Assembly: GCF_001939115.1 (NCBI RefSeq)
Contig: NZ_MQTZ01000045.1
Coordinates: forward strand, 162,006 to 185,375
Length of the DNA: 23,370 bases
From: Leptolyngbya sp. 'hensonii'
GTDB lineage: Bacteria; Cyanobacteriota; Cyanobacteriia; GCF-001939115
Reading direction: 5' to 3'
Position 1 is the stretch's first letter. Every line of letters begins with the position of its first letter. The position numbers were made by a program, and so were the translations under genes. The notes below the pieces were generated by a model. That model made no database searches and was not told the DNA's origin. It saw only the letters and a program-made list of their open reading frames with translations. Positions 2,215-23,370 of the stretch are shown here, piece after piece.

Positions 2215-2389
2215 TCCAGAGCTGCCCAGACGATGCAAAAATTTCAGCACGGCTGTATCCTCCCCAGGCACTATGTCTGTGCTTTTATTGTCTCAAATGC
2301 AACTGGTATGGCTGGGGGATTGCATCAAAATGCAACCTCTCAATGGAGCTGGGCTAATCTAGTAGCCAGTATTGTCTAGAACTGCAGCT

Positions 2390-3175
2390 ATGGCTCATGT
2401 GTCTCGCCTGTTTATCTATCCCATCAAAGCCCTCGATCGGGTGGAAGTGGATCGGGTCACGGTGCTTAAAAGTGGTGCCCTGAAGCACGATCGGGAATTT
2501 GCTCTCTTTGATGCCTCTGGTCATTTCGTCAATGGCAAGCGTCACGATCGGGTCCATGCCTTACGCTCTCGATTTGACCTGGAAACCCGCTGCGTGATAG
2601 TCTCTGCTCCCAGTTTTGCACAAGCGGCCACCTTCCAAATCGATCGGGAACAGGATGCCCTGGCAACCTGGATGGGAGAATACTTTGGGTTTCCAGTCCA
2701 GATTCGCCAGAACCTGGAGCAGGGGTTTCCCGATGACACCGACTCCCCTGGCCCCACCCTGATCAGCACCGCTACCCTGGCCACGATCGCCAACTGGTAT
2801 CCCAACCTGGAAGAAACAGAAGTGCGTCTTCGCTTCCGGGCCAACATAGAAATTGGCGATGTCCCAGCTTTCTGGGAAGATCAGTTGTTTGCTGCTGTAA
2901 ACCAGACCGTTGCCTTTCAGATTGGAGCGGTGCGATTCCTGGGGATTAATCCCTGTCAGCGTTGCGTGGTCGTCACCCGCAACTCCCAAACAGGAGAAGC
3001 AGATCCGAGCTTCCAGAAAATCTTTGCGGCCAGACGACGGGAGACGCTGCCACCCTGGGTCGATCGATCGCGCTTCAACCACTTTTATCGCCTCGCCATC
3101 AATACACGCCTGCCAGAATCAGAAGCTGGGAAAACGATCGCCCTTGGAGATGAGATCAAAATTCAGCTTTGCTGA
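2390..3175 (+). CDS. MOSC-domain protein (YcbX/MOCO sulfurase C-terminal-like)
   Basis: The track ORF starts at a TTG at 2372. The ATG at 2390 gives the N-terminus MAHVSRLFIYPIKALDRVEV, typical of the MOSC N-terminal beta-barrel. The conserved Cys context INPCQRCVVVT is present downstream. The last two codons and the stop (cttTGCTGA) are supplied by the inserted MITE. Confidence 0.7.
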   Translation: MAHVSRLFIYPIKALDRVEVDRVTVLKSGALKHDREFALFDASGHFVNGKRHDRVHALRSRFDLETRCVIVSAPSFAQAATFQIDREQDALATWMGEYFGFPVQIRQNLEQGFPDDTDSPGPTLISTATLATIANWYPNLEETEVRLRFRANIEIGDVPAFWEDQLFAAVNQTVAFQIGAVRFLGINPCQRCVVVTRNSQTGEADPSFQKIFAARRRETLPPWVDRSRFNHFYRLAINTRLPESEAGKTIALGDEIKIQLC

Positions 3176-3321
3176 ATGCAAATATGAATTACCCTCATCC
3201 CCAACCCTTCTCCCGCAGGAGAAGGGAGCTAAAACTCTTGTTCCCTCTCCTTTGGGAGAAGGCTAGGGTGAGGGCTGCATAAGGCTCAAGCACGAAAATC
3301 ATCCTTCTATTCAGCAACGCC
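3165..3321. mobile_element. 157-bp MITE, copy A. TIRs are AGCTTTGCTGAAT ... ATTCAGCAACGCC. Flanked by an 8-bp direct repeat CAAAATTC at 3157-3164 and 3322-3329.
   Basis: The 157 bp are, allowing a few mismatches, the reverse complement of 9970-10126. Termini are inverted repeats of consensus GGCKTTGCTGAAT. A perfect 8-bp target-site duplication flanks the element. Internal hairpins are present (ccttctcccgcaggagaagg). Confidence 0.65.
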
Positions 3322-3716
3322 CAAAATTCTCCCTACCTGAAGCCCCACAAAGGTTTTGCCCGCAACGCTCTCGCCTCTTCTGAGTCAGCATCATGCTCAT
3401 AGAACTTAACTTCTTCAATCGCTGATTGACTATATAATCTTTAGGTCGGGCAAGCTTCAGTTTTTGTCCGACCTCAAGGCTGGTTGCATGGGTTGGGTGG
3501 AGCCTGGCGAAACCCAACATTCATCAAGATTTAATCAAGGTTTCATTGGGTTCCATTCGCACTCCATCCAACCGACCAATTAAGCTTGCAACGCTACTAG
3601 CCTTAAGCCACAGTTCAGGAGGAAAAAGGAAGTTCCAGAGAGCTAAGTCCCAAAGAGCTTCGAAGGGGCTTCATCACGCGACAGACTCTTTTTCCTGATA
3701 CAAGGAGTACAGTCCT

Positions 3717-4787
3717 ATGAGCAGCGTTTTACAACAGCGGCAAAAGCTTGATCCTCTTGCCATCTGGTCAGACTTCGCAGATTGGATTACCAGCACACAA
3801 AACCGGATCTATATCGGCTGGTTCGGGGTGTTGATGATCCCAACCTTGCTGGTTGCGGCCTTCACCTTCATCATTGCCTTTACTGCAGCTCCTCCCGTCG
3901 ATATGGAGGGCATTCGAGCACCCATCACAGGGTCCATCCTGGAGGGTCGCAATCTCATCACAGCCGCAGTGGTCCCAACCTCTGCAGCGATCGGCTTACA
4001 TTTTTATCCCATCTGGGAAGCCAGTTCCCTGGATGAATGGCTCTATAACGGTGGTCCCTATCAACTGATCCTCTTGCACTTTTTAATGGGTATCTGGTCT
4101 TATCTAGGCCGGTTGTGGGAACTGAGTTATCGCCTGGGGATGCGGCCCTGGATTGCTGTGGCCTTTTCAGCCCCGGTCGCTGCTGCGACAGCCGTGTTTC
4201 TGGTTTATCCTATAGGACAGGGTAGTTTCTCTGAAGGTATGCCCCTGGGGATTTCTGGCACTTTCTACTTCATGTTTGCCCTCCAGGCACAGCACAATAT
4301 TCTGATGCATCCCTTTCACATGCTGGGGGTGGCTGGCATCTTGGGTGGTGCTCTGTTGAGTGCTGTGCATGGCTCCCTGGTAACAAGCAGTTTAATTCGA
4401 GAAACCAGCGACTTAGAATCTGCAAATATGGGCTACAAATTTGGTCAGCAGGAAGGAACCTACAACCTGTTGGCTAGCCATGCAGGCTATCTGGGCCGAC
4501 TGTTGATCCCGCAAGTGGGTGCCCGCAATAGCCGTTCAGTTCATTTCCTTTTGGGGGCAGTCCCTACGATCGGCATCTGGTTTGCCGCTCTCGGCATCAG
4601 CACGATCGCCTTCAATTTGAATGGGTTTAATTTCAACCATTCCATTCTGGATAGTCAGGGGCAGGTCATTTCCACGGATGCGGACCTCCTAAATCGTGCG
4701 ACTCTGGGCATTCAGGTGATGCATGGCCTGAATACCCATCATTTCCCGAATCTGATTGCTGGGGGCCAGGAAATTCCACTGAGTTAA
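3717..4787 (+). CDS. psbA: Divergent photosystem II D1 paralogue (rogue/sentinel-type rD1) lacking Mn4CaO5 ligands and the C-terminal extension
   Basis: 356 aa with an ATG preceded by AAGGAG. Clear D1 homology throughout ([54 protein letters not shown]). Aligned to canonical D1: D170->E (FSEGMPLG), E189->Q (LQAQHNIL), E333->G, D342->N (HHFPNLIA), and E130->L. The ChlF QD motif is absent (SYLGRLWEL). The protein ends ...GGQEIPLS without the processed C-terminal tail. Confidence 0.85.
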
Positions 4788-4885
4788 AGCACCCATCTGG
4801 AACCCTGGTTCATCACCTGATCCACCCAACAGCCAGAGCCTTTTAGCTAGCAACAGCAAAACACAATCGGGGAGCGATGATTAAT

Positions 4886-4925
4886 GGATAGGGGTGGGGC
4901 AGATAAGTCTGCCCCACCCCTATCC
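4886..4925 (+). terminator. 18-bp perfect-stem hairpin (GGATAGGGGTGGGGCAGA taag TCTGCCCCACCCCTATCC) about 100 bp downstream of the rD1 stop. Candidate terminator or 3' stabilising stem-loop.
   Basis: Perfect inverted repeat read directly from the sequence. The downstream U-tract is weak (ttgcatcc), so this may instead be a GC-rich palindromic element of the GGGGTGGGG/CCCCACCCC family. Confidence 0.35.
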
Positions 4926-5053
4926 TTGCATCCCTATATAATCTTGTTGAGTACAATGCGTTGAGCACAGCATGTTTGCGGCATATCTCCCCAAACTAGA
5001 CCCACGATTAACCTGTATGTTGCTAGCTTCCTATCCCAACCCACAAAACAGCC

Positions 5054-6481
5054 ATGAGTAAACAACAGGGGGAAAATACCTACCTCCAACAAGTTCTGCA
5101 AGAAAAAGCTGAGGTGGATCGCAAACTCAGCCGCAGTCGCAGTTCCCTGCCCACTCCATCTGCCCAGTCTAACTCGGGGATGGTATCGCCCCCTGCTAGC
5201 AGGGCGATCGACTATCGCATTACCGGGTTCTGGCTCTGGAAAAGTGTCATTGTTCCGCCCAATGTCTACACCGTGCATACCCGACGAGGGCATCGCGAAC
5301 CCTTACACATGGGCAAAGGCATTTCCTTTCGCTTCAATCCCCTCACGGACGCCTTTCTGGTGATTCCTGCTGCCGTACAAACCATTCTGATCAACGCCAA
5401 CTGCATTTGTATTGAGCGGCAGGGACTTCTGGTGCAAGCCTACGTGCAATGGATTATTGATGATATCCAAACGGCATATTGGAAACTGGATTTTTCTGAC
5501 CTAGAAGACCCGATGGGCATTGTCAATTTACAGTTGCGGGAACAGGCTGAAGCAGCCATTAAAGACAAAGTAGCCACCCTCAGCATTGATGAAGTCTTAA
5601 GTGACAAGCAGCCGATTATTGAGGAACTGACTCATCGTCTGCAAGCAGTTGCGGAGGGCAGTAGGGGTCAGGAAGGTAGCAATTTCCCATCCGAGGGGCT
5701 GGGTCTCAAAATTGTGACAGTACAGATTAAGGAGGCGGTGGTCAGTTCAACTCAGTTATGGCAAAACCTGCAAACGCCCTTCCGCGCAGAGCGGGAAAAG
5801 CTGGCTCGTCTGGCACAACTGGAAAATGATCAGGAAATCAAAGCTCGAGAGCTAGCGAATCGGCTGAGCAATGAGCGGGGTGAGCTGAACGTTGCCAGTG
5901 AAATTGAGCAACTTCGGGCCGAGCAAACCCGGATTGCCTACGATCGTGAACAGACTGAGAAGCTGCGCCGCAATCAGGTAGAGCAGGAGGCTGAGCGTCA
6001 GATTTTGGCGGAACAGAACCGTACAGCCCAGGCCCGCAACCAGGCTCAGTTGGAGCTGGTGTTGCAAGAATTCGAGTTGGAAAAACAACGCATCACAGCA
6101 GAAATGGAGAAAGTGCAGCAACAAATTCAACTGGATGCCGTCGTGGCCCAGAAAACTCGCGCCGAAGTATCTGCCAGCCTGGAGGTGGCTGAATTGCAAC
6201 ACCAGGCTGATGTGGCTCAGCGAGATCGGCAACTTGATCTCGATCGTAAGCGGCGTGAGATTGAGAATGAGCTTTCAGAGCGTCATATCCAGGCCCAGTT
6301 AATTGCCCAATTGCCCGACATTGTCCAACACATGCCAGCCCCCCAAGAACAACGCACCACAATCATCACCTCTGATGCCCAGGAGGGACTGGTCAATCCA
6401 CTCTTAGGCTTTTTGGCAGGTCTGTCCAATTTAACGCAAGATGTCTTTGCCCGAACTCAGACTGACAAGAACACGGATTGA
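5054..6481 (+). CDS. SPFH/band-7 (flotillin-like) domain protein with long C-terminal coiled coil
   Basis: 475 aa. The N-terminal portion resembles an SPFH core (IVPPNVYTVHTRRGHREP..VIPAAVQTILINANCICIERQGLLVQAYVQWII). It is followed by about 250 aa of heptad-like E/Q/R/A-rich coiled-coil sequence typical of flotillins. Confidence 0.5.
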   Translation: MSKQQGENTYLQQVLQEKAEVDRKLSRSRSSLPTPSAQSNSGMVSPPASRAIDYRITGFWLWKSVIVPPNVYTVHTRRGHREPLHMGKGISFRFNPLTDAFLVIPAAVQTILINANCICIERQGLLVQAYVQWIIDDIQTAYWKLDFSDLEDPMGIVNLQLREQAEAAIKDKVATLSIDEVLSDKQPIIEELTHRLQAVAEGSRGQEGSNFPSEGLGLKIVTVQIKEAVVSSTQLWQNLQTPFRAEREKLARLAQLENDQEIKARELANRLSNERGELNVASEIEQLRAEQTRIAYDREQTEKLRRNQVEQEAERQILAEQNRTAQARNQAQLELVLQEFELEKQRITAEMEKVQQQIQLDAVVAQKTRAEVSASLEVAELQHQADVAQRDRQLDLDRKRREIENELSERHIQAQLIAQLPDIVQHMPAPQEQRTTIITSDAQEGLVNPLLGFLAGLSNLTQDVFARTQTDKNTD

Positions 6482-6637
6482 ATTCAGACCCATTTGCCCC
6501 AATGCTATGGGCAATGATGAAATATCATCCCCTTCAGGTGCAGAGGCCGTTACCAAAACTGATACCAACTCTCCCAGTCGGAATACCCCTCGATAGGATG
6601 GAGACGTTCGCTCCTCGCGTTTCTCATGCACCACACA

Positions 6638-6670
6638 GCCGTAGAGTTGGGTCTCTACGGCTCGTTTCTT
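6638..6670 (+). terminator. Hairpin GCCGTAGAG-ttgggt-CTCTACGGC followed by TCGTTTCTT, between convergent genes
   Basis: 9-bp stem, 6-nt loop and a T-rich tail on the plus strand. It lies downstream of both the flotillin-like gene (plus) and the membrane-protein gene (minus). Confidence 0.35.
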
Positions 6671-6677
6671 ATGGGGG

Positions 6678-7697
6678 CTAACTCTCGACTCGCCCCTGCC
6701 CCAAAGCCCAGTTCAACGCCAGGAAGACAGCACCCAGGGTCAGCAGCAGCACAGGTGCAGTGGCAAACCCCTGAGAGACCCCCGACAACAGGGAAAAGCC
6801 CCCCAGGGCGATCGCCAGTCCCAGGCCCAATCCAGCAGCCGTTGCCGGATGCTGGGGCAATAACCGGGCGATCGCAGCCAGGGTCAGGGGGGTCACAGAC
6901 TGCAACAAGGCTAGGCCCAGCAGTAACGGGATGGTCTGGGTTCCAGCCAGGGTCAGCAGGGGGATAGCCAGGGCCAAGGCCAGTCCAGCCCAGCGTCGCC
7001 ACCCCCAGAGATCGGCCAGGAAGCCTCCCAGGAGTTTGCCGATCGCTGCCGCCAGGGCCAGTTCCACCAGCAGGGTAACTGGCTCCCGGTGCAGCACCTG
7101 CACCGCATTCCAGACCGCAGAACGGAGGGCGATCGCCCCTAGCAGCACCAGCAGCAGGCTGTCCTGGCCTTCTGGCAGCAGTTCCCCTGCAGCTTCCTGA
7201 CTGGCAGGTGCAGGCTGGGGAAAGCCCAACATGGCCCCAGCGAGTATCAGCAGAACCAGCCCCCAGGGCAGGACATATCCAGCCAGGGCCAGAACGCCTC
7301 CCAATGCCAGACCCAGAACCCCCGGAGCTGTAAAACAGGCTGGCCCGATCGCTGAGTTAGGGGTGGCGGAGAGGGCGATCGCCCCAGCTCCCACGTGAAA
7401 AGCAGCGGACCCCAACCCGGCCAGAAGAACGGCTCCAGCGGGATGATGGGGCACCAAGGTCGAGAGGGTCAGGAGAAGCAGGCCGAGGAGGGTCACCCCA
7501 TGGGGACAACGTCCGCGATCACAGAGGAGACCGATCGCAGGTTGGCCTGCAAACCCCAGGGCATTGTAGAGCAACACCAGGGCCAGCGCCTGTCCGGATG
7601 AATGAGTCTGCACGATGGTTGCCAGCAAAGCTCCAGCCGTGGCATCAGCAACGCCATGGGTCAGCCCAAGTAGCAGCGGCAATCCCAGCCTGGCCAT
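6678..7697 (-). CDS. Polytopic integral membrane protein (Ala/Leu/Gly-rich, about 10 TM), family not assigned
   Basis: Long hydrophobic ORF, 346 aa on the track from a GTG at 7718. The ATG at 7697 gives MARLGLPLLLGLTHGVADA. Last gene of the minus-strand ABC operon. Strong third-position GC. Confidence 0.4.
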   Translation of the reverse strand: MARLGLPLLLGLTHGVADATAGALLATIVQTHSSGQALALVLLYNALGFAGQPAIGLLCDRGRCPHGVTLLGLLLLTLSTLVPHHPAGAVLLAGLGSAAFHVGAGAIALSATPNSAIGPACFTAPGVLGLALGGVLALAGYVLPWGLVLLILAGAMLGFPQPAPASQEAAGELLPEGQDSLLLVLLGAIALRSAVWNAVQVLHREPVTLLVELALAAAIGKLLGGFLADLWGWRRWAGLALALAIPLLTLAGTQTIPLLLGLALLQSVTPLTLAAIARLLPQHPATAAGLGLGLAIALGGFSLLSGVSQGFATAPVLLLTLGAVFLALNWALGQGRVES

Positions 7698-7701
7698 CGG
7701 T

Positions 7702-8157
7702 CTATCGGACCAGATCACTCAAGACCGTCGGCACCACAGGCACAGCAATAATCAAAAGCACGTAGCTGACCACATTGGCCAGGACAGTGGCCTTCCAGGT
7801 TTGGCGCGGCGGGTGTTTGGCAAGGAGGGCCAGAATACCGCCTTCAATCGCGATCGAACTCGCCAGGCAAAACACCCACCAAATCACCACTGCAGCAGGA
7901 CCCATGAGAAACACCAGCATAAACGCCAGGAAGGAAGTCAGCAGAACACCGGTCAGGGTCGAGATGGTATTCACCAGCAGGGACGCCAGCAGGGCTCGGG
8001 GAAAGGCCGCCCACCTGAGCCAAAACAGGACGAGCGTTTCACTCAGGACAATCAGCACAGCGAGGACAACCAGGGTCAAGATCGGCACTGTTGGATCTCG
8101 TAACACGGGTCCCAATCCCACGTCAGCCAGAAGCGGTGCACATAGATAAATGTTCAT
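7702..8157 (-). CDS. Small hydrophobic membrane protein (4 predicted TM), hypothetical
   Basis: 151 aa. Its ATG overlaps the TGA of the upstream ABC gene (ATGA at 8154-8157), giving translational coupling. Segments are highly hydrophobic. Confidence 0.4.
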   Translation of the reverse strand: MNIYLCAPLLADVGLGPVLRDPTVPILTLVVLAVLIVLSETLVLFWLRWAAFPRALLASLLVNTISTLTGVLLTSFLAFMLVFLMGPAAVVIWWVFCLASSIAIEGGILALLAKHPPRQTWKATVLANVVSYVLLIIAVPVVPTVLSDLVR

Positions 8158-17146: not shown

Positions 17147-17773
17147 TTATTCCACCAGATGTTGATTTTCGGGATTAGTTGCAAGGCTCAGTAGAATATG
17201 GATTTGCTGTCGAAATTCAGCAACCAGGCTGCTATGAACATGTTGTTCAAATAGATCGGCAAGTGCCTGGTGTAGCCAGAGGTTATCCTTTTTGCTGGCA
17301 GCAAAGGCTGACCAGGCACTTTCGCCAGTTTGACGCAGGTTAGTAATCAGCGATCGCACATTGTGTAGCTTATCAGCCAGGATGACGCGCTGGGCTTCTG
17401 GCGAAGCATGGCGAATTTGGTTGAGATAGTCGAGCTTATGGCTTTTCCAGGGTTGGGAAGCAGAGCAGGGAGGAATCGTGCAATCATGAACGATCTCGGC
17501 AACTTGTGAACCATAGCGACGCAGAATTTCTGTGTAGATGGGCTCACCCCCCTGATCCTCAACAGCATCGTGGAGGAGGGCGGCGATCGCTTCATCCTCG
17601 CTGCCACCGTCTTCCAGTACCAGGGCGGCTACAGCCATGAGGTGACTGATGTAAGGTACGGCATTTACTTTACGGGATTGGTAGCGATGTAAGTGGAGGG
17701 CATAGGTAAAGGCATCAGCGAAGCGATCGCTCAAAATCACATCAAGGTGGATCTTTTCAGAAACGTGGGTCAT
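17147..17773 (-). CDS. Stand-alone RelA/SpoT-type HD-domain hydrolase (small alarmone hydrolase/Mesh1-like)
   Basis: 208 aa. HRYQSRKVNAVPYISHLMAVAALVLE...AIAALLHDAVEDQ matches the (p)ppGpp-hydrolase HD signature (H..Q.RK.GEPYI.HPL.VA.IL...AALLHDV.ED). The ATG overlaps the TGA of the upstream gene (ATGA at 17770-17773). Confidence 0.7.
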   Translation of the reverse strand: MTHVSEKIHLDVILSDRFADAFTYALHLHRYQSRKVNAVPYISHLMAVAALVLEDGGSEDEAIAALLHDAVEDQGGEPIYTEILRRYGSQVAEIVHDCTIPPCSASQPWKSHKLDYLNQIRHASPEAQRVILADKLHNVRSLITNLRQTGESAWSAFAASKKDNLWLHQALADLFEQHVHSSLVAEFRQQIHILLSLATNPENQHLVE

Positions 17774-19200
17774 AGCAGGTCATCATCATATAACTGCATT
17801 TCTTGCTTGACTTCCTGAGCGGTACGTTGACGCAATTCCCAGGGAAGCAATACTTCTACGTTGGGTCTCCAGGCGCGGAGTCGTTGGAAAACGTTGGGGT
17901 CATCCTGGCGGTAGTATGCCTGATAGTAGGCATCATCGGGGGAGCGATGCTGCCAGAGGCGCAGGAGATGTTCTTGAAGCTGACCAGAGAGGGTCTGACG
18001 GATGAGGAATTGCACCTGATGATAGGGGATTTTGCGAAAGGTGGTATGGCGCAGGGTGTCGCGAATATAGCGGTCATCCCATTTGCGATCGAACCGTAGT
18101 AGAAGTAAGTGGCGGGGTTGGTAGTAATCAAACCCCCAGGCTTCATCCATCGCCGTTTCGATCTCCTCTGGGGTGGGGAGGGTTTGTTTCTGGTATTGCT
18201 GGTAAAGCTTTCGGGGGACAGTGGTATCTTTCCAATTTAGGGAATCGATGGCGAGGATGCGATCGAGGCGGTAATTGCGCCAGTTGAGCGCAGAACTGGC
18301 TGCTTTGGGAAACTGACCATAGGCACACAGGTAGGGTCCACGACGGTAGTAATAGATGCAAACGGGATAGACCACGAGAGGACAACTCCGGGTTTCCCCT
18401 GCACTCTGGTAGTGAAGGCGTACCGGCGGAATGGGGGTTTGCTGCCAGATCTCTGAGAGTAAGGCTTGCCAGTCATCCACGCGATCGAGCTTGTTTTGGG
18501 AAATGACGTAATCGACATGGACAAAGAAGCGGGGGTATCCCTGGAAGGTCCGGGAGAAGGTGTCAGCAATAGCTGCCAGATCGGGCTGGGTAAACAAGGT
18601 GAGCTCCTGCCCGGAGGGAGACTGGATGATTGGGGCTCCAACATGGGGATAATCGGGATAGGAAGTGACTTTTTGAAATTTGTTTTCCTGGATATGGAGC
18701 CATCCTGTGGTAGCAAGGTGATGCAGATCGCTGGAAAGGGTGCGGCGGGTAAACCCAAACAGGCGAGTTTGAAAAAGTAGGTGATCCAGATTGGGCGGCA
18801 GGAGATCATGGTCAATGAGCGATTGGTGCAGTTGATCGCGCTGTTCCTGGATCTGACCTTGCCCAGGCTGCTTACCCTGGTAAACCTGCCACTGGGATTG
18901 GGTGGTAGTCAAATCTGGATGAAAGAGCCAGGCAGCGGTGGGTTTAGTGCAGGGACAGGAGAGACGGTGGAGGGTTGGTTTGGTTTCCCCGCTGGGATGG
19001 TCAGGGGTGAAAAACTGATCGCGCCAATCTGCGTAGCTGAAGGTTTCTGGTAAAGCCAGGGTGTCACCCATTTCGCCGTAGAGTAGATGTAACCAGACCC
19101 ACAGGCGAATGGCTTGAAGGAAGTTTTGCTTGAGAGAACCCCGCACTAACCACTGCAACAGGGGAATGTTGGGAGACTCTTGCCAAAATGCATCAGCCAT
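17770..19200 (-). CDS. WYL-domain protein (putative ligand-binding transcriptional regulator of the CRISPR/defence island; TIGR03985/sll7009-like)
   Basis: 476 aa. A WYL core is recognisable around GPYLCAYGQFPKAASSALNWRNYRLDRILAIDSL (compare the WYLvGwc...RtFRLDRI motif of PafBC/BrxR-type WYL domains). The gene is transcribed divergently from the csx3-like operon and is translationally coupled to the HD hydrolase. Confidence 0.5.
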   Translation of the reverse strand: MADAFWQESPNIPLLQWLVRGSLKQNFLQAIRLWVWLHLLYGEMGDTLALPETFSYADWRDQFFTPDHPSGETKPTLHRLSCPCTKPTAAWLFHPDLTTTQSQWQVYQGKQPGQGQIQEQRDQLHQSLIDHDLLPPNLDHLLFQTRLFGFTRRTLSSDLHHLATTGWLHIQENKFQKVTSYPDYPHVGAPIIQSPSGQELTLFTQPDLAAIADTFSRTFQGYPRFFVHVDYVISQNKLDRVDDWQALLSEIWQQTPIPPVRLHYQSAGETRSCPLVVYPVCIYYYRRGPYLCAYGQFPKAASSALNWRNYRLDRILAIDSLNWKDTTVPRKLYQQYQKQTLPTPEEIETAMDEAWGFDYYQPRHLLLLRFDRKWDDRYIRDTLRHTTFRKIPYHQVQFLIRQTLSGQLQEHLLRLWQHRSPDDAYYQAYYRQDDPNVFQRLRAWRPNVEVLLPWELRQRTAQEVKQEMQLYDDDLL

Positions 19201-19338
19201 ATCCTAGATGGTGCTCTATCAATTTGCCTACTTGTATGAGTGTGCCACAGACATGGAGGAGAGGGTTTCCAATTGAATGCCTCTTAAGCTGATATTGAGG
19301 TTGAGAATCCAACATGTTCCTTTGATAGGATCAGTTTG
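19201..19338. promoter_or_regulatory. Divergent intergenic/promoter region between the WYL-domain gene (minus) and the csx3-like operon (plus)
   Basis: 138-bp non-coding gap between two divergently oriented start codons. This is the likely site of autoregulation by the WYL protein. No operator has been defined. Confidence 0.3.
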
Positions 19339-19695
19339 ATGTCAAACACTATTTATATGGCTGCGATCGAGTTGACGTGTATTTCTCATCGGACAGCATC
19401 AGGGCTCGCCTATCAGCACTTGCATATTCATCTGGCAGCGGAAGATGGGTTGATTGAGCCAGAGGACTTGAAAGGGCTGGTTGTGCCAGACACAATCGTG
19501 TGGAGTCAGGGAGTGGTGATTGAAGGAAAGGCTCCCATTTGGTTGTATGGCTATCTGGTGCATGCCTGTCATCCAGCGGCTTGGGTCGCCTGTTATGATC
19601 CCCGGCTGGGAGATGGGGGTGGGGCAGTAGTGGTAGCCACCCATGCGCGCCAAGTGAAAGTTGGTGAAGTGCTTCTTACGACGTTACCCCTATGA
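19339..19695 (+). CDS. Csx3-like small protein (putative Crn3 ring-nuclease family)
   Basis: 118 aa from the ATG at 19339; the track uses a TTG at 19336. The motif GKAPIWLYGYLVHACHPAAWVACYDPRLGDGGGAVVVATH resembles the Csx3 core as recalled (PIW..YDPRLGAVVV). It is clearly paralogous to the N-domain of the next gene. Its stop overlaps the next ATG (ATGA at 19692-19695). Confidence 0.45.
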   Translation: MSNTIYMAAIELTCISHRTASGLAYQHLHIHLAAEDGLIEPEDLKGLVVPDTIVWSQGVVIEGKAPIWLYGYLVHACHPAAWVACYDPRLGDGGGAVVVATHARQVKVGEVLLTTLPL

Positions 19696-20579
19696 TTCGC
19701 TTAAGCCGAATTGAGTCGAATTATCAGGTTGTGTCGGTGTTACCTCATGCGGAGGGACGGGCGATCGACCCTATAGAACTGATCGACCTGCAGCTCCCTC
19801 ATGATGTGGATCTAAAGCAGCCTGTGATTCTGTTTGGTCCCGTGCCTACTTGGGTTTATGGGCGGCTGGTTGCCCTATGCCGGGAGGCTCCCTGGGTTGG
19901 TTGTTTCTCGGCTCCAGAGGCAGAAGCAGTCGTGATCCAAAGTCGAGTGGCGAATGTGGCAGTGGGGGATGTGATTGCCATTCCGCTGGGGCGGGAAAAG
20001 TTGGCTCCAGCGGTGCTGGTAGTGGGACCGCCAGATAGTGGGAAGAGTGTTTTGTCGAATGCATTGCGCAGGAGTTTACTGGCGCATTATCCGCACAGTT
20101 CTATCTTTTTGCATCGGGCGAATTGGGATGGTGAGGGGAACTGGAGCCATGAGGGGCAAGATCATGCCCTGATCCAGCGTCTTGTGCGGAACCATGAACG
20201 CCGCATTCACGAACGCCCCTCTGCAACAGAATTGATGGCGGCGTTTTTTGCCTATCACGAGGCAGCGGTGATGAATTTGCGGCGGGTGGTGGATCTGGTG
20301 ATTGTGGATGTGGGAGGGAAGGTGCAACCTGAGAAGGCAGGGGTGCGCGATCGCTGTACCCATGGGGTGATTATTAGCCGCGCACCGGAACTGGTAGGGG
20401 AGTGGCGCAGGTTTTGTGAGCCAACGCTGGAGTTGCTGACGGTGATTCACAGCGTACTGGAGGAACGGTGTGAGGTGAAGTCGAGAGTACCCCTGGAGGT
20501 AATTGCGGGACCTTGGTTCCGGGGGAAAACGCACCAAGTGCCAGAGGTGGTGTGGCAGGCAGTGGGGAAATTGTTATAG
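19692..20579 (+). CDS. Csx3-like N-terminal domain fused to a P-loop NTPase (Csx3-AAA-type fusion)
   Basis: 295 aa. Residues of about 40-100 (GPVPTWVYGRLVALCREAPWVGCFSAPEAEAVVIQS) align with the upstream small protein. Walker A VLVVGPPDSGKSVL and a Walker B-like VVDLVIVDVGG follow. Confidence 0.5.
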   Translation: MIRLSRIESNYQVVSVLPHAEGRAIDPIELIDLQLPHDVDLKQPVILFGPVPTWVYGRLVALCREAPWVGCFSAPEAEAVVIQSRVANVAVGDVIAIPLGREKLAPAVLVVGPPDSGKSVLSNALRRSLLAHYPHSSIFLHRANWDGEGNWSHEGQDHALIQRLVRNHERRIHERPSATELMAAFFAYHEAAVMNLRRVVDLVIVDVGGKVQPEKAGVRDRCTHGVIISRAPELVGEWRRFCEPTLELLTVIHSVLEERCEVKSRVPLEVIAGPWFRGKTHQVPEVVWQAVGKLL

Positions 20580-20591
20580 CCCTGGTTAGGA

Positions 20592-21776
20592 CTAGCCAAA
20601 ATCTTTGCCGATACGCTGGTTCAGATCTAAAAGGCAAGCTTGTCGCTCACCAAGTGTTTGACTGGAGGTTTCGATCTCAAACCGAACTATCCAGGTGCCG
20701 TTGCTCAGCGTTCCTTCCAAGGCATCTCCTTGCAAACGAAAGGAATTGAGGCTGGAGAGTGCGGGATTCCAGTAGAAGGTGCGACAGCCTGTGACATAGG
20801 GGCAGACATCGGTGATGCGTTGCAGGTAACGGATGATTGGGTCTCTGGCATTACCCCAATTATGGTTAGACATCTGGGGTTTACGTTTCTGTTGCGGGGG
20901 GACTGGAGATGGCAAATGCAACGCCATTTGTGGCAGTTGTCGTTCTCGAAATGCCTCATAAAATACCTGACCTGTGGGCGACAGGGTGATGTAAACCTGC
21001 CCGTCAATCTCTACTCGTTCTACCAGGGGTTCCAGGGCTTCTGACCAGTCATCCTGCACGGTTTCCCAGGGGGTCTGGTCGTGGGAGTTGCGCCCCAAAG
21101 CAGTGAGCCAGCCGTTATGCTGAATCCACAGGTCAAAATCCAGGCTGACGGGCATGGGTGGAAAGGCGATGATTTCGCTAAACCGTTCATGTTTGTAGTA
21201 AACCGGAACTTTGAGCGCCTGCCCCAATAGAACGGCGATCGCAATTTGTGCTTTATACCCCCCCGTGGCGTTGATCGCGCAATACTCGGCTCCGCGCAAC
21301 CGCAATCCGCAGGACATTTGCTTAACCAGGTTGCGTAACCCATCAGTGCGAAAGGTTTTGGGATGATTGTCTTGAAGCCCTTCTACTCGATACGGAGTGG
21401 CGGTATGCCCCAGTGCCTGGTAGTAATGAACCAGGAGGGTGGCGATCGCAGTGCCTTCGTCAGTGTCAGAGTGACAAAACAGGAGGGTGGCGGTAGGGGT
21501 GACATAGCCCCGCTGGAGCAAATCACCAATGGAGTTGATTTCGGCTCCACATAGACGCAGGGTGGGCGGAAGCTGGCTTAAATGCAGGGCGAGGGTAACC
21601 CAATCAGTATGCTCAAAGGTGGTTTTGAGGGTGGCAACGGTATCAGTGGTGAGATGGGCACGATCGGGGACAGGCTGTTTTTGGAGCCACTCATCGTAAT
21701 GGTCGGGGGCAGGCAAGGTTCTAAGATTGGGATTAAACAGGCTCGTACCAACGGTACAGATAAGGGTATGACGCAT
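20592..21776 (-). CDS. CARF-domain protein (cyclic oligoadenylate sensor) with an uncharacterised C-terminal domain of about 190 aa
   Basis: 394 aa. The N-terminus MRHTLICTVGTSLF is the CARF motif-I glycine/serine loop. AINATGGYKAQ is the CARF motif-II GG(Y/F)K. The C-terminal half has no convincing HEPN Rx4-6H motif, no clear PD-(D/E)xK motif and no HTH. Confidence 0.6.
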   Translation of the reverse strand: MRHTLICTVGTSLFNPNLRTLPAPDHYDEWLQKQPVPDRAHLTTDTVATLKTTFEHTDWVTLALHLSQLPPTLRLCGAEINSIGDLLQRGYVTPTATLLFCHSDTDEGTAIATLLVHYYQALGHTATPYRVEGLQDNHPKTFRTDGLRNLVKQMSCGLRLRGAEYCAINATGGYKAQIAIAVLLGQALKVPVYYKHERFSEIIAFPPMPVSLDFDLWIQHNGWLTALGRNSHDQTPWETVQDDWSEALEPLVERVEIDGQVYITLSPTGQVFYEAFRERQLPQMALHLPSPVPPQQKRKPQMSNHNWGNARDPIIRYLQRITDVCPYVTGCRTFYWNPALSSLNSFRLQGDALEGTLSNGTWIVRFEIETSSQTLGERQACLLDLNQRIGKDFG

Positions 21777-22695: not shown

Positions 22696-23368
22696 GTTTT
22701 CAACTATTCCAATTTGACCCAATTGGTAGGGGTCCTGAGTGCTCAGGAGCAAGCGGATAGGGATGCCGCTAGAGAGTTTTTCAACTATTCCAATTTGACC
22801 CAATTGGTAGGGACAACTCTCGTCGTGACTCTCCGAGTCTCGATGGTTCTAAGGTCGGTTTTCAACTATTCCAATTTGACCCAATTGGTAGGGAAGTGGT
22901 TGCAAAATGCAAAGACGGAGTTGTTGTGGAGAACTCCGCTGGGTTTTCAACTATTCCAATTTGACCCAATTGGTAGGGGGTTGCGAAGTAGTTGGGAATC
23001 TTTGTTTTCTTCGAGAAAGTTTTCAACTATTCCAATTTGACCCAATTGGTAGGGTGTGCTTGCTGCGGTTATTGCACTGGTGATTTGGCTTCTAGTTTTC
23101 AACTATTCCAATTTGACCCAATTGGTAGGGTTTGTTTTTTTGAAAAAGCAGGAGAATTTCCCATGTCCAACAAAGGTTTTCAACTATTCCAATTTGACCC
23201 AATTGGTAGGGGGTCATTGTTTCAGTTGTTTATTCCCTTTTCAAGGAGAAGTTTTCAACTATTCCAATTTGACCCAATTGGTAGGGACTTTGTTTACACC
23301 TGGAACGAAACCAACAATGGCACTACCACCTAGTTTTCAACTATTCCAATTTGACCCAATTGGTAGGG
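22696..23368 (-). CRISPR. CRISPR array with at least 9 identical 36-bp repeats GTTTTCAACTATTCCAATTTGACCCAATTGGTAGGG and 8 spacers of 39-49 bp. The array continues beyond the window end.
   Basis: Repeats lie at 22696-22731, 22777-22812 (first base T), 22858-22893, 22943-22978, 23019-23054, 23095-23130, 23176-23211, 23251-23286 and 23333-23368. The reverse complement ends ...ATAGTTGAAAAC, the usual 3' GAAAC-type handle. This, together with the degenerate repeat at the left end, suggests minus-strand transcription with the leader to the right of the window. There is an internal 6-bp palindrome CCAATT/AATTGG. Confidence 0.95.
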
Positions 23369-23370
23369 AG

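Follow-up and report, generated by a model that had tools for sequence, protein, structure and literature searches.

What kind of D1 protein is encoded at positions 3717 to 4787 of a 23,370-nucleotide stretch of the Leptolyngbya sp. 'hensonii' genome (the window), and would a photosystem II (PSII) built with it still evolve oxygen? The original prediction was that this locus encodes a rogue, sentinel-type D1 (rD1) that cannot ligate the Mn4CaO5 cluster. The gene is as follows.

3717..4787, plus strand: psbA paralogue for a Group 2 ('rogue' or 'sentinel') D1 of 356 aa; ATG-initiated ORF, stop codon included

The rD1 sequence shows 100% identity with OLP17008.1/WP_075600023.1 from Leptolyngbya sp. 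'hensonii', and three more proteins of the window match OLP17009, OLP17013, and OLP17014 exactly; these come from the same contig as OLP17008.1. The organism was isolated from a microoxic, sulfidic sinkhole/spring and carries out sulfide-driven anoxygenic photosynthesis (PMC5776472). Hamilton et al. (2018) reported that its draft genome has group 4 psbA copies, one group 3 copy, and one group 2 copy and that it encodes a Mo-dependent nitrogenase and one SQR (PMC5776472); what we say here of the other psbA copies and of the nif genes is taken from that genome paper. The gene at 3717..4787 is a real psbA gene whose class and presence in the genome have both already been published, and our analysis of this Group 2 copy adds confirmation rather than discovery (PMC5776472).

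The protein was matched by the Pfam Photo_RC family at an E value of 9e-88. It scored 598.6 bits against the NCBIfam psbA equivalog model TIGR01151, barely over the cutoff of 596.05, and its scores against the profiles for D2, L, and M were far below that value. The top solved relatives identified by phmmer were T. elongatus PsbA3 (9m5a and 7yq7), Synechocystis PsbA2 (6wj6, and 8tow with Glu at position 170), and T. elongatus PsbA2 (7yq2), with all listed structures near an E value of 1e-170. Identity between rD1 and standard D1 was 71 to 75%.

Residues were brought into register by phmmer alignment with T. elongatus PsbA3 and PsbA2 and Synechocystis PsbA2, together with MAFFT alignment, and are given in T. 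elongatus numbering. Only two gaps separate rD1 from the solved D1 proteins, a 3-residue N-terminal insertion and one extra Ala after H252, and the alignment has no gaps from residue 254 to the C terminus. Because both gaps lie before residue 254, the correspondence of residues in the lumenal C-terminal region is unambiguous, and the Mn ligand changes that had been predicted persist after correct gapping. The substitutions in rD1 are E130L, D170E, E189Q, E329Q, E333G, R334L, L341N, D342L, and L343I. Four of these, D170E, E189Q, E130L, and E333G, were borne out as predicted in both the phmmer and the MAFFT alignments to solved D1. The predicted loss of the ligand at position 342 also stands, but the gap-free alignment places the reported Asn at position 341, and position 342 itself is occupied by Leu, the residue found there most often in Group 2.

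The complete ligand set of the Mn4CaO5 cluster (D170, E189, H332, E333, D342, and A344) is thus broken at four positions in rD1 (E333G, D342L, D170E, and E189Q), and two carboxylate bridges of the cluster, at E333 and D342, are missing. The second-sphere proton/chloride network around the cluster is changed as well (D61E, E65A, N181Y, V185A, E329Q, and R334L), and the H-bond donor to pheophytin is gone (E130L). The QB pocket is altered by the one-residue insertion after H252 (at 253) and by F255L, S264G, and F265A, which are changes of the kind typical of herbicide-resistant mutants. The protein keeps Y161, H190, H198, H215, H252, H272, H332, N335, H337, and A344. They include all those that serve charge separation and the reduction of quinone, namely, the TyrZ pair Y161/H190, the P680 ligand H198, the non-heme iron ligands H215 and H272, and H252.

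It had also been claimed that rD1 has neither A344 nor a C-terminal extension, and this claim must be withdrawn. The Ala at aligned position 344 is query residue 348, and it is followed by eight residues, GGQEIPLS, which match the start of a normal extension; the tails of canonical D1 (SGEQAPV...) and of the other Group 2 proteins (GGEAIPVS...) begin in the same way. Seventeen of the 120 database homologues are 356 aa long, and those inspected finish in similar short tails. This corrected C-terminal register, with A344 and an 8-residue tail present, is new here. A passage of a ChlF review that cites other work states that cleavage is slower with Gly at position 345 and is prevented only by Pro (PMC10535343). 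Judging from these residues, processing of rD1 by CtpA at A344 is conceivable.

Group 2 was defined by Cardona et al. (2015) by Glu170 in most members; Asp, Asn, Arg, Gln, or Ala at 189; retention of H332; loss in every case of E333, to Ala, Ser, or once Gly; replacement of D342 mostly by Leu, Val, or Met; Ala or Ser at 344; strict retention of H337 and N335; mostly Pro and sometimes Val, Leu, Met, or Ile in place of R334; Gln or Arg in place of E329; Gln, Leu, or Met at 130; and a unique extra residue at G253 next to a retained H252 (PMC4408414). Compared point by point, rD1 carries all of these markers. It has E170, L130, Q329, H332, N335, and H337; E333 is replaced by Gly, a rare state but one named by Cardona et al. 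(PMC4408414), and D342 by Leu in a gap-free part of the alignment. The insertion is seen as ...ASH-A-GYLG... in rD1 compared with ...AAH-GYFG... in canonical D1.

For this comparison, rD1 was aligned with 120 homologues from the database, with three references taken from the PDB, and with the D1 genes of genome loci, 87 in number; sequences were sorted as G2-type if they combined the insertion after H252 with a residue other than Glu at 333. This gave 119 G2-type and 76 other sequences, so that the non-Glu residue at 333 in 119/119 G2-type sequences is partly circular, being a sorting criterion along with the insertion. Of the 76 other sequences, 75 carry every ligand of the cluster, and in none of these is there an insertion after H252. 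The exception, P0090, has the insertion and G2-like residues and yet keeps Glu333, with other ligands missing. Substitutions of rD1 that were not used in sorting are widespread in the G2-type set, including S85T (116/119), N87A (119/119), F211L (114/119), I248L (111/119), F255L (110/119), V280T (105/119), and W317D (75/119). E170 and E329Q each occur in 102 of the 119, and position 342 is occupied by Leu, Val, or Ile. In four G2-type homologues (P0037, P0059, P0111, and P0086), the non-heme iron/QB ligand at 215 is Gln rather than His; all but one of them carry Asn at 252 as well, and position 332 is Gln in P0037 and P0059. The Gln215 subset departs more radically than ordinary rD1.

A neighbour-joining tree was built from Kimura distances over 334 columns for 112 sequences with 200 bootstraps. 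Canonical (G3/G4) and G2-type proteins were split in 200/200 bootstraps, and rD1 nests among the G2-type proteins, outside standard G3/G4 D1; the tree covers canonical and G2-type sequences, and the position of rD1 relative to groups G0 (Gloeobacter) and G1 (ChlF) is judged by motifs and percent identity. Together with the full set of Group 2 markers, this split supports the predicted rogue, sentinel-type identity. Within the G2-type proteins, rD1 falls into a subclade of about 17 to 19 proteins that are 80 to 86% identical to it, a grouping with weak support (77 to 98 of 200 bootstraps), whose named members come from an Oscillatoriales MAG, Planktothricoides, Kamptonema cortianum, Oscillatoria salina, and Phormidium.

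The protein therefore belongs to the same class as the Group 2 'rogue' D1 proteins (Murray 2012; Cardona et al. 2015, PMC4408414), which include PsbA4, the sentinel D1 of Cyanothece sp. ATCC 51142. It shares with them E170, a non-Glu residue at 333, a hydrophobic residue at 342, H332/N335/H337, Q329, L130, the insertion after H252, the altered QB pocket, A344 with a short tail, and a diazotrophic host, and it is 74 to 89% identical to other G2-type proteins. Unlike most of them, it has Gly at 333 (2/119 others), Leu at 334 (Pro in 110/119), Ala at 65 (Glu in 112/119), and Arg at 75 (N75R; 1/119). Its Gln189 is also a minority state in Group 2 (29/119), Asp being the commonest. E65 lies on a proposed proton-exit path. 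R334 lies on one as well (PMC4408414), and the rare states at 65 and 334 point to further loss of the catalytic apparatus rather than its retention.

These observations bear on what a PSII containing this protein can do. It is highly probable that rD1 is a Group 2 D1 that replaces standard D1 in the PSII reaction centre whenever the cell cannot or should not evolve oxygen. Replacement would be expected in the dark, without oxygen, on exposure to sulfide, or while N2 is being fixed, and the published account of relatives in PMC4408414, as far as it deals with expression, has Group 2 D1 induced in the dark, in anoxia, or during N2 fixation. Published E333A and nearly all D342 mutants show no cluster assembly and no photoautotrophic growth (PMC4408414), and from this mutant work we infer that rD1 would be unable to ligate the cluster. 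The Cyanothece sD1, when introduced into Synechocystis (Wegener et al. 2015, in the summary given by PMC4408414), allowed PSII to assemble, with low O2 evolution and no photoautotrophy. By analogy with these mutants and with Cyanothece sD1, PSII built with rD1 would assemble and evolve little or no O2. Such a complex might act as an inactive placeholder while electrons from sulfide reach PSI via SQR, or while nitrogenase is active. Grim and Dick (2016) hypothesized that G2 D1 serves to shut off O2 production while cells fix N2 or photosynthesize anoxygenically, and a placeholder role under sulfide would be an instance of that published hypothesis (PMC5061849).

Several features count against a fully silent PSII. 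Synechocystis mutants with D170E or E189Q can still evolve O2 (PMC4408414), a structure of PSII with D170E exists (8tow), and some metal binding or processing at A344 is conceivable because H332, H337, N335, and A344 are kept. PSII containing rD1 could thus be a photo-oxidase for an alternative donor (Mn2+, a sulfide-derived compound, or another), or could hold a partial metal site through E170, Q189, H332, and perhaps a processed A344. Besides the retained E170, Q189, H332, H337, N335, and A344 and the activity of the D170E and E189Q mutants (PMC4408414), strong purifying selection over the whole protein, the lumenal C terminus included, is consistent with this view, as is the presence of sulfur-related genes beside some orthologues (YgaP-like and CsoR-like in locus L084 and a BLH phosphatase in locus L090). 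However, E333 and D342 mutants fail to assemble the cluster (PMC4408414), the Cyanothece sD1 complex showed low O2 evolution and no photoautotrophy as cited there, and neither sqr nor any other sulfur gene lies near rD1 within the window. We therefore regard such a donor-side activity as unlikely, and the Group 2 D1 that replaces standard D1 in a PSII silenced for oxygen evolution is the reading that we retain.

A water-oxidising identity, either as a microaerobic D1' of Group 3 or as a standard Group 4 D1 that has diverged, is very improbable. The profile score just over the psbA equivalog cutoff, the presence of A80 and A286 as in D1', and the citation of D1' literature by the genome paper in its discussion of the G2 copy (PMC5776472) would be compatible with it. 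The D1' protein (Group 3; T. elongatus PsbA2, PDB 7yq2) is indeed comparable as an alternative psbA product for low oxygen that has A80 and A286 in common with rD1. However, D1' retains every ligand of the cluster and is active in O2 evolution, and Groups 3 and 4 are defined by the complete ligand set (PMC4408414), whereas rD1 lacks E333 and D342. The G2-specific insertion after H252 and the separation from canonical D1 in every bootstrap replicate likewise speak against this identity, which is contradicted by the alignments, the marker counts, and the tree.

A decaying, nonfunctional psbA copy is an equally poor explanation of the locus. The loss of catalytic ligands and the residues that are unusual even in G2 (E65A, N75R, E333G, and R334L) might be read as signs of decay. 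Against this, the ORF is intact and full length and is preceded by a good Shine-Dalgarno (SD) sequence, the ligands of the charge-separation cofactors are all conserved, and so is the leader. We compared the rD1 gene with nine orthologous coding sequences and obtained a dN of 0.10 to 0.13 and a saturated dS, with dN/dS below 0.05 wherever dS was computable, which indicates that purifying selection acts on the gene. The GC content (0.51 to 0.52) and GC3 (0.58) of the rD1 gene are those of neighbouring genes, and there is therefore no sign of recent foreign insertion.

The remaining reading, that rD1 is a chlorophyll f synthase (ChlF, the Group 1 'super-rogue' D1), has in its favour only that both are D1 paralogues without the full set of Mn4CaO5 ligands, thought to enter a PSII-like complex, and it can be set aside with near certainty, since the QD motif of ChlF at positions 127/128 (M-G in standard D1) is L-G in rD1, as the predicted absence of the QD signature requires, H252 is retained where ChlF has Gln or Arg (Q252 with the QD motif in PMC10535343), H332 and H337, which are lost in G1 (PMC4408414), are present, identity to canonical D1 is 71 to 75% versus about 55% for super-rogue D1 (PMC4408414), and far-red (FaRLiP) photosystem paralogues were not found within the window.

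The region upstream of the retained Group 2 D1 gene is an intergenic gap of 541 bp, compared with a usual 240 to 843 bp within the subclade. Conservation with orthologues is confined to the last ~110 nt before the gene, which contain three elements.

3609..3632, plus strand: purine-rich element CACAGTTCAGGAGGAAAAAGGAAG (CAGTTnAGGAGGAA..GGAAGC), conserved in loci L082, L084, L086, and L087
3686..3696, plus strand: pyrimidine tract CTCTTTTTCCT (CTCTTTTTCC), with (C)TTTTTCC conserved in 8/10 subclade orthologues
3703..3707, plus strand: Shine-Dalgarno sequence AGGAG, 9 nt 5' of the ATG, invariant in 10/10 aligned subclade orthologues

The counterparts of this leader lie at 1422-1506 in L084 and at 7939-8006 in L082 and are also present in L087 and L086. 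The only difference between the purine-rich element and its counterpart in L084, which is the nearest orthologue, is one A in an A-run, and the element is conserved although the synonymous sites of the coding sequence are saturated. The conservation of the SD sequence, the pyrimidine tract, and the purine-rich element among orthologues points to a stretch of ~110 nt that functions as a leader or operator, in which the purine-rich element may act as leader RNA or as an operator. The predicted 5' UTR of about 390 bp is unsupported, and the ~110 nt of conservation speaks neither for nor against that length. From complementarity, the pyrimidine tract could pair with either the SD sequence or the purine-rich element as alternative partners. 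A hairpin sequestering the SD sequence was rejected as a candidate: RNAalifold of the subclade leaders gave only a 4-bp UUCC/GGAG pairing, with neither covariation nor compensatory changes. A k-mer search of all G2 upstream regions revealed nothing in common beyond the SD sequence and the subclade pyrimidine tract, an Rfam scan of the whole window gave no family match, and a promoter scan of 3100-5200 detected no sigma-70-like promoter. The putative conserved leader common to the rD1 subclade is a small addition of the present analysis.

Two repeats were also observed around the gene. The 12-mer CTATATAATCTT, which includes TATAAT (3433-3438 in the first copy), occurs twice on the plus strand, at 3430-3441 and 4934-4945, where ~0.03 matches would be expected by chance; the copies lie 276 nt 5' of the rD1 start codon and 109 nt 5' of that of the following gene (5054). 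They may be shared -10 elements, neither with a recognisable -35. Directly after the upstream MOSC gene, an imperfect inverted repeat at 3200-3268 has 26-nt arms that are 81% complementary and contains the perfect 9-bp palindrome CCCTTCTCC/GGAGAAGGG. This repeat could represent a terminator or one copy of a dispersed element.

Downstream of the gene, the predicted perfect 18-bp stem-loop was confirmed.

4886..4925, plus strand: perfect 18-bp stem (4886-4903/4908-4925) with a TAAG loop, 99 nt after the rD1 stop codon, no U-tract

Folding of 4788-4960 gave -65.5 kcal/mol (z = -5.3), and the hairpin is present in a single copy in the window. It was not called in a terminator scan of 3100-5200, having no T-run. 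Long hairpins 20 to 150 nt downstream are equally typical of other G2 and of canonical psbA genes, where the best 60-nt hairpin has a median of -25.8 kcal/mol among G2 genes and of -27.0 among canonical ones; that of the hensonii rD1 gene, at -41.9, is at the strong end. Because comparable hairpins follow other psbA genes, we consider it an ordinary feature, probably a terminator or 3'-end stabiliser. With its conserved ~110-nt leader and strong 3' stem-loop, the rD1 gene would be monocistronic.

A combined interpretation can be offered only as a long shot. In the subclade leader, the purine-rich element and the SD sequence might be rivals for pairing with the pyrimidine tract, and the leader might in this way exert translational control over a switch from O2-evolving to silent PSII under sulfide or anoxia. 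The permissive E170/Q189, together with the unusual G333/L334/A65, might also constitute a donor side that is adapted to sulfide instead of being merely disabled.

The immediate neighbours of the rD1 gene are the following.

2372-3175, plus strand: MOSC-domain gene, 5' neighbour
5054-6481, plus strand: gene for an uncharacterised 475-aa protein, 3' neighbour

The 475-aa protein and the small intergenic ORFs had no Pfam match at an E value of <=1, and tblastn/blastn comparison of the window neighbours and flanks with 83 loci returned nothing meaningful. The neighbours differ in every close orthologue examined. In L084 (134-1261 and 3723-4104), genes for a YgaP-like TM protein, a CsoR-like repressor, and a DUF2214 protein lie upstream of the rD1 orthologue and a heme oxygenase gene lies downstream; in L090 (3093-4082), a PetC-like Rieske protein and the BLH phosphatase are encoded downstream. 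The hensonii window has no redox/sulfur gene linkage such as that seen in these two loci. Some G2/G3 genes of anoxygenic cyanobacteria lie within a few genes of sqr (PMC5061849), whereas for the hensonii rD1 gene no sqr was found within the extent of the window, 3.7 kb upstream and 18.6 kb downstream.

Farther downstream, the region at 6600-7800 has an elevated GC content of 0.62-0.66 and a raised AT skew of +0.33-0.37. This region coincides with an Ala/Leu/Gly-rich membrane protein of 346 aa (6678-7718, minus strand) that has only a weak MFS match, and its amino acid bias accounts for the compositional shift. The far end of the window carries a CRISPR array with an accessory cluster beside it (17147-21776), and no CRISPR effector genes are present within the window.

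17147-17773, minus strand: HD-domain protein of the accessory cluster
17770-19200, minus strand: WYL-domain protein of the accessory cluster
19336-19695, plus strand: Csx3, accessory cluster
19692-20579, plus strand: 295-aa Csx3-domain fusion, accessory cluster
20592-21776, minus strand: Cas_APE2256-family protein, accessory cluster
22696-23370: CRISPR array of the 36-nt repeat GTTTTCAACTATTCCAATTTGACCCAATTGGTAGGG, at least 9 copies at 75- to 85-nt spacing, running off the window end

The expectation that this gene says something about the physiology of its host holds, since the organism uses sulfide and has a Mo-nitrogenase, an SQR, and G3 and G4 psbA copies (PMC5776472). The same combination of G2 with G3/G4, SQR, and nif is found in Geitlerinema sp. 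PCC 9228, whose psbA1 is a Group 2 gene, and in other anoxygenic cyanobacteria (PMC5061849), where the proposed role of the G2 psbA is likewise the switching off of O2 evolution (PMC5061849). The rD1 gene thus correctly flags a low-oxygen, sulfidic, diazotrophic lifestyle. Group 2 D1 is a proposed switch by which PSII would stay assembled while O2 evolution is silenced, and as such it is relevant to nitrogen fixation, to sulfide-driven anoxygenic photosynthesis, and to models of the evolution of water oxidation.
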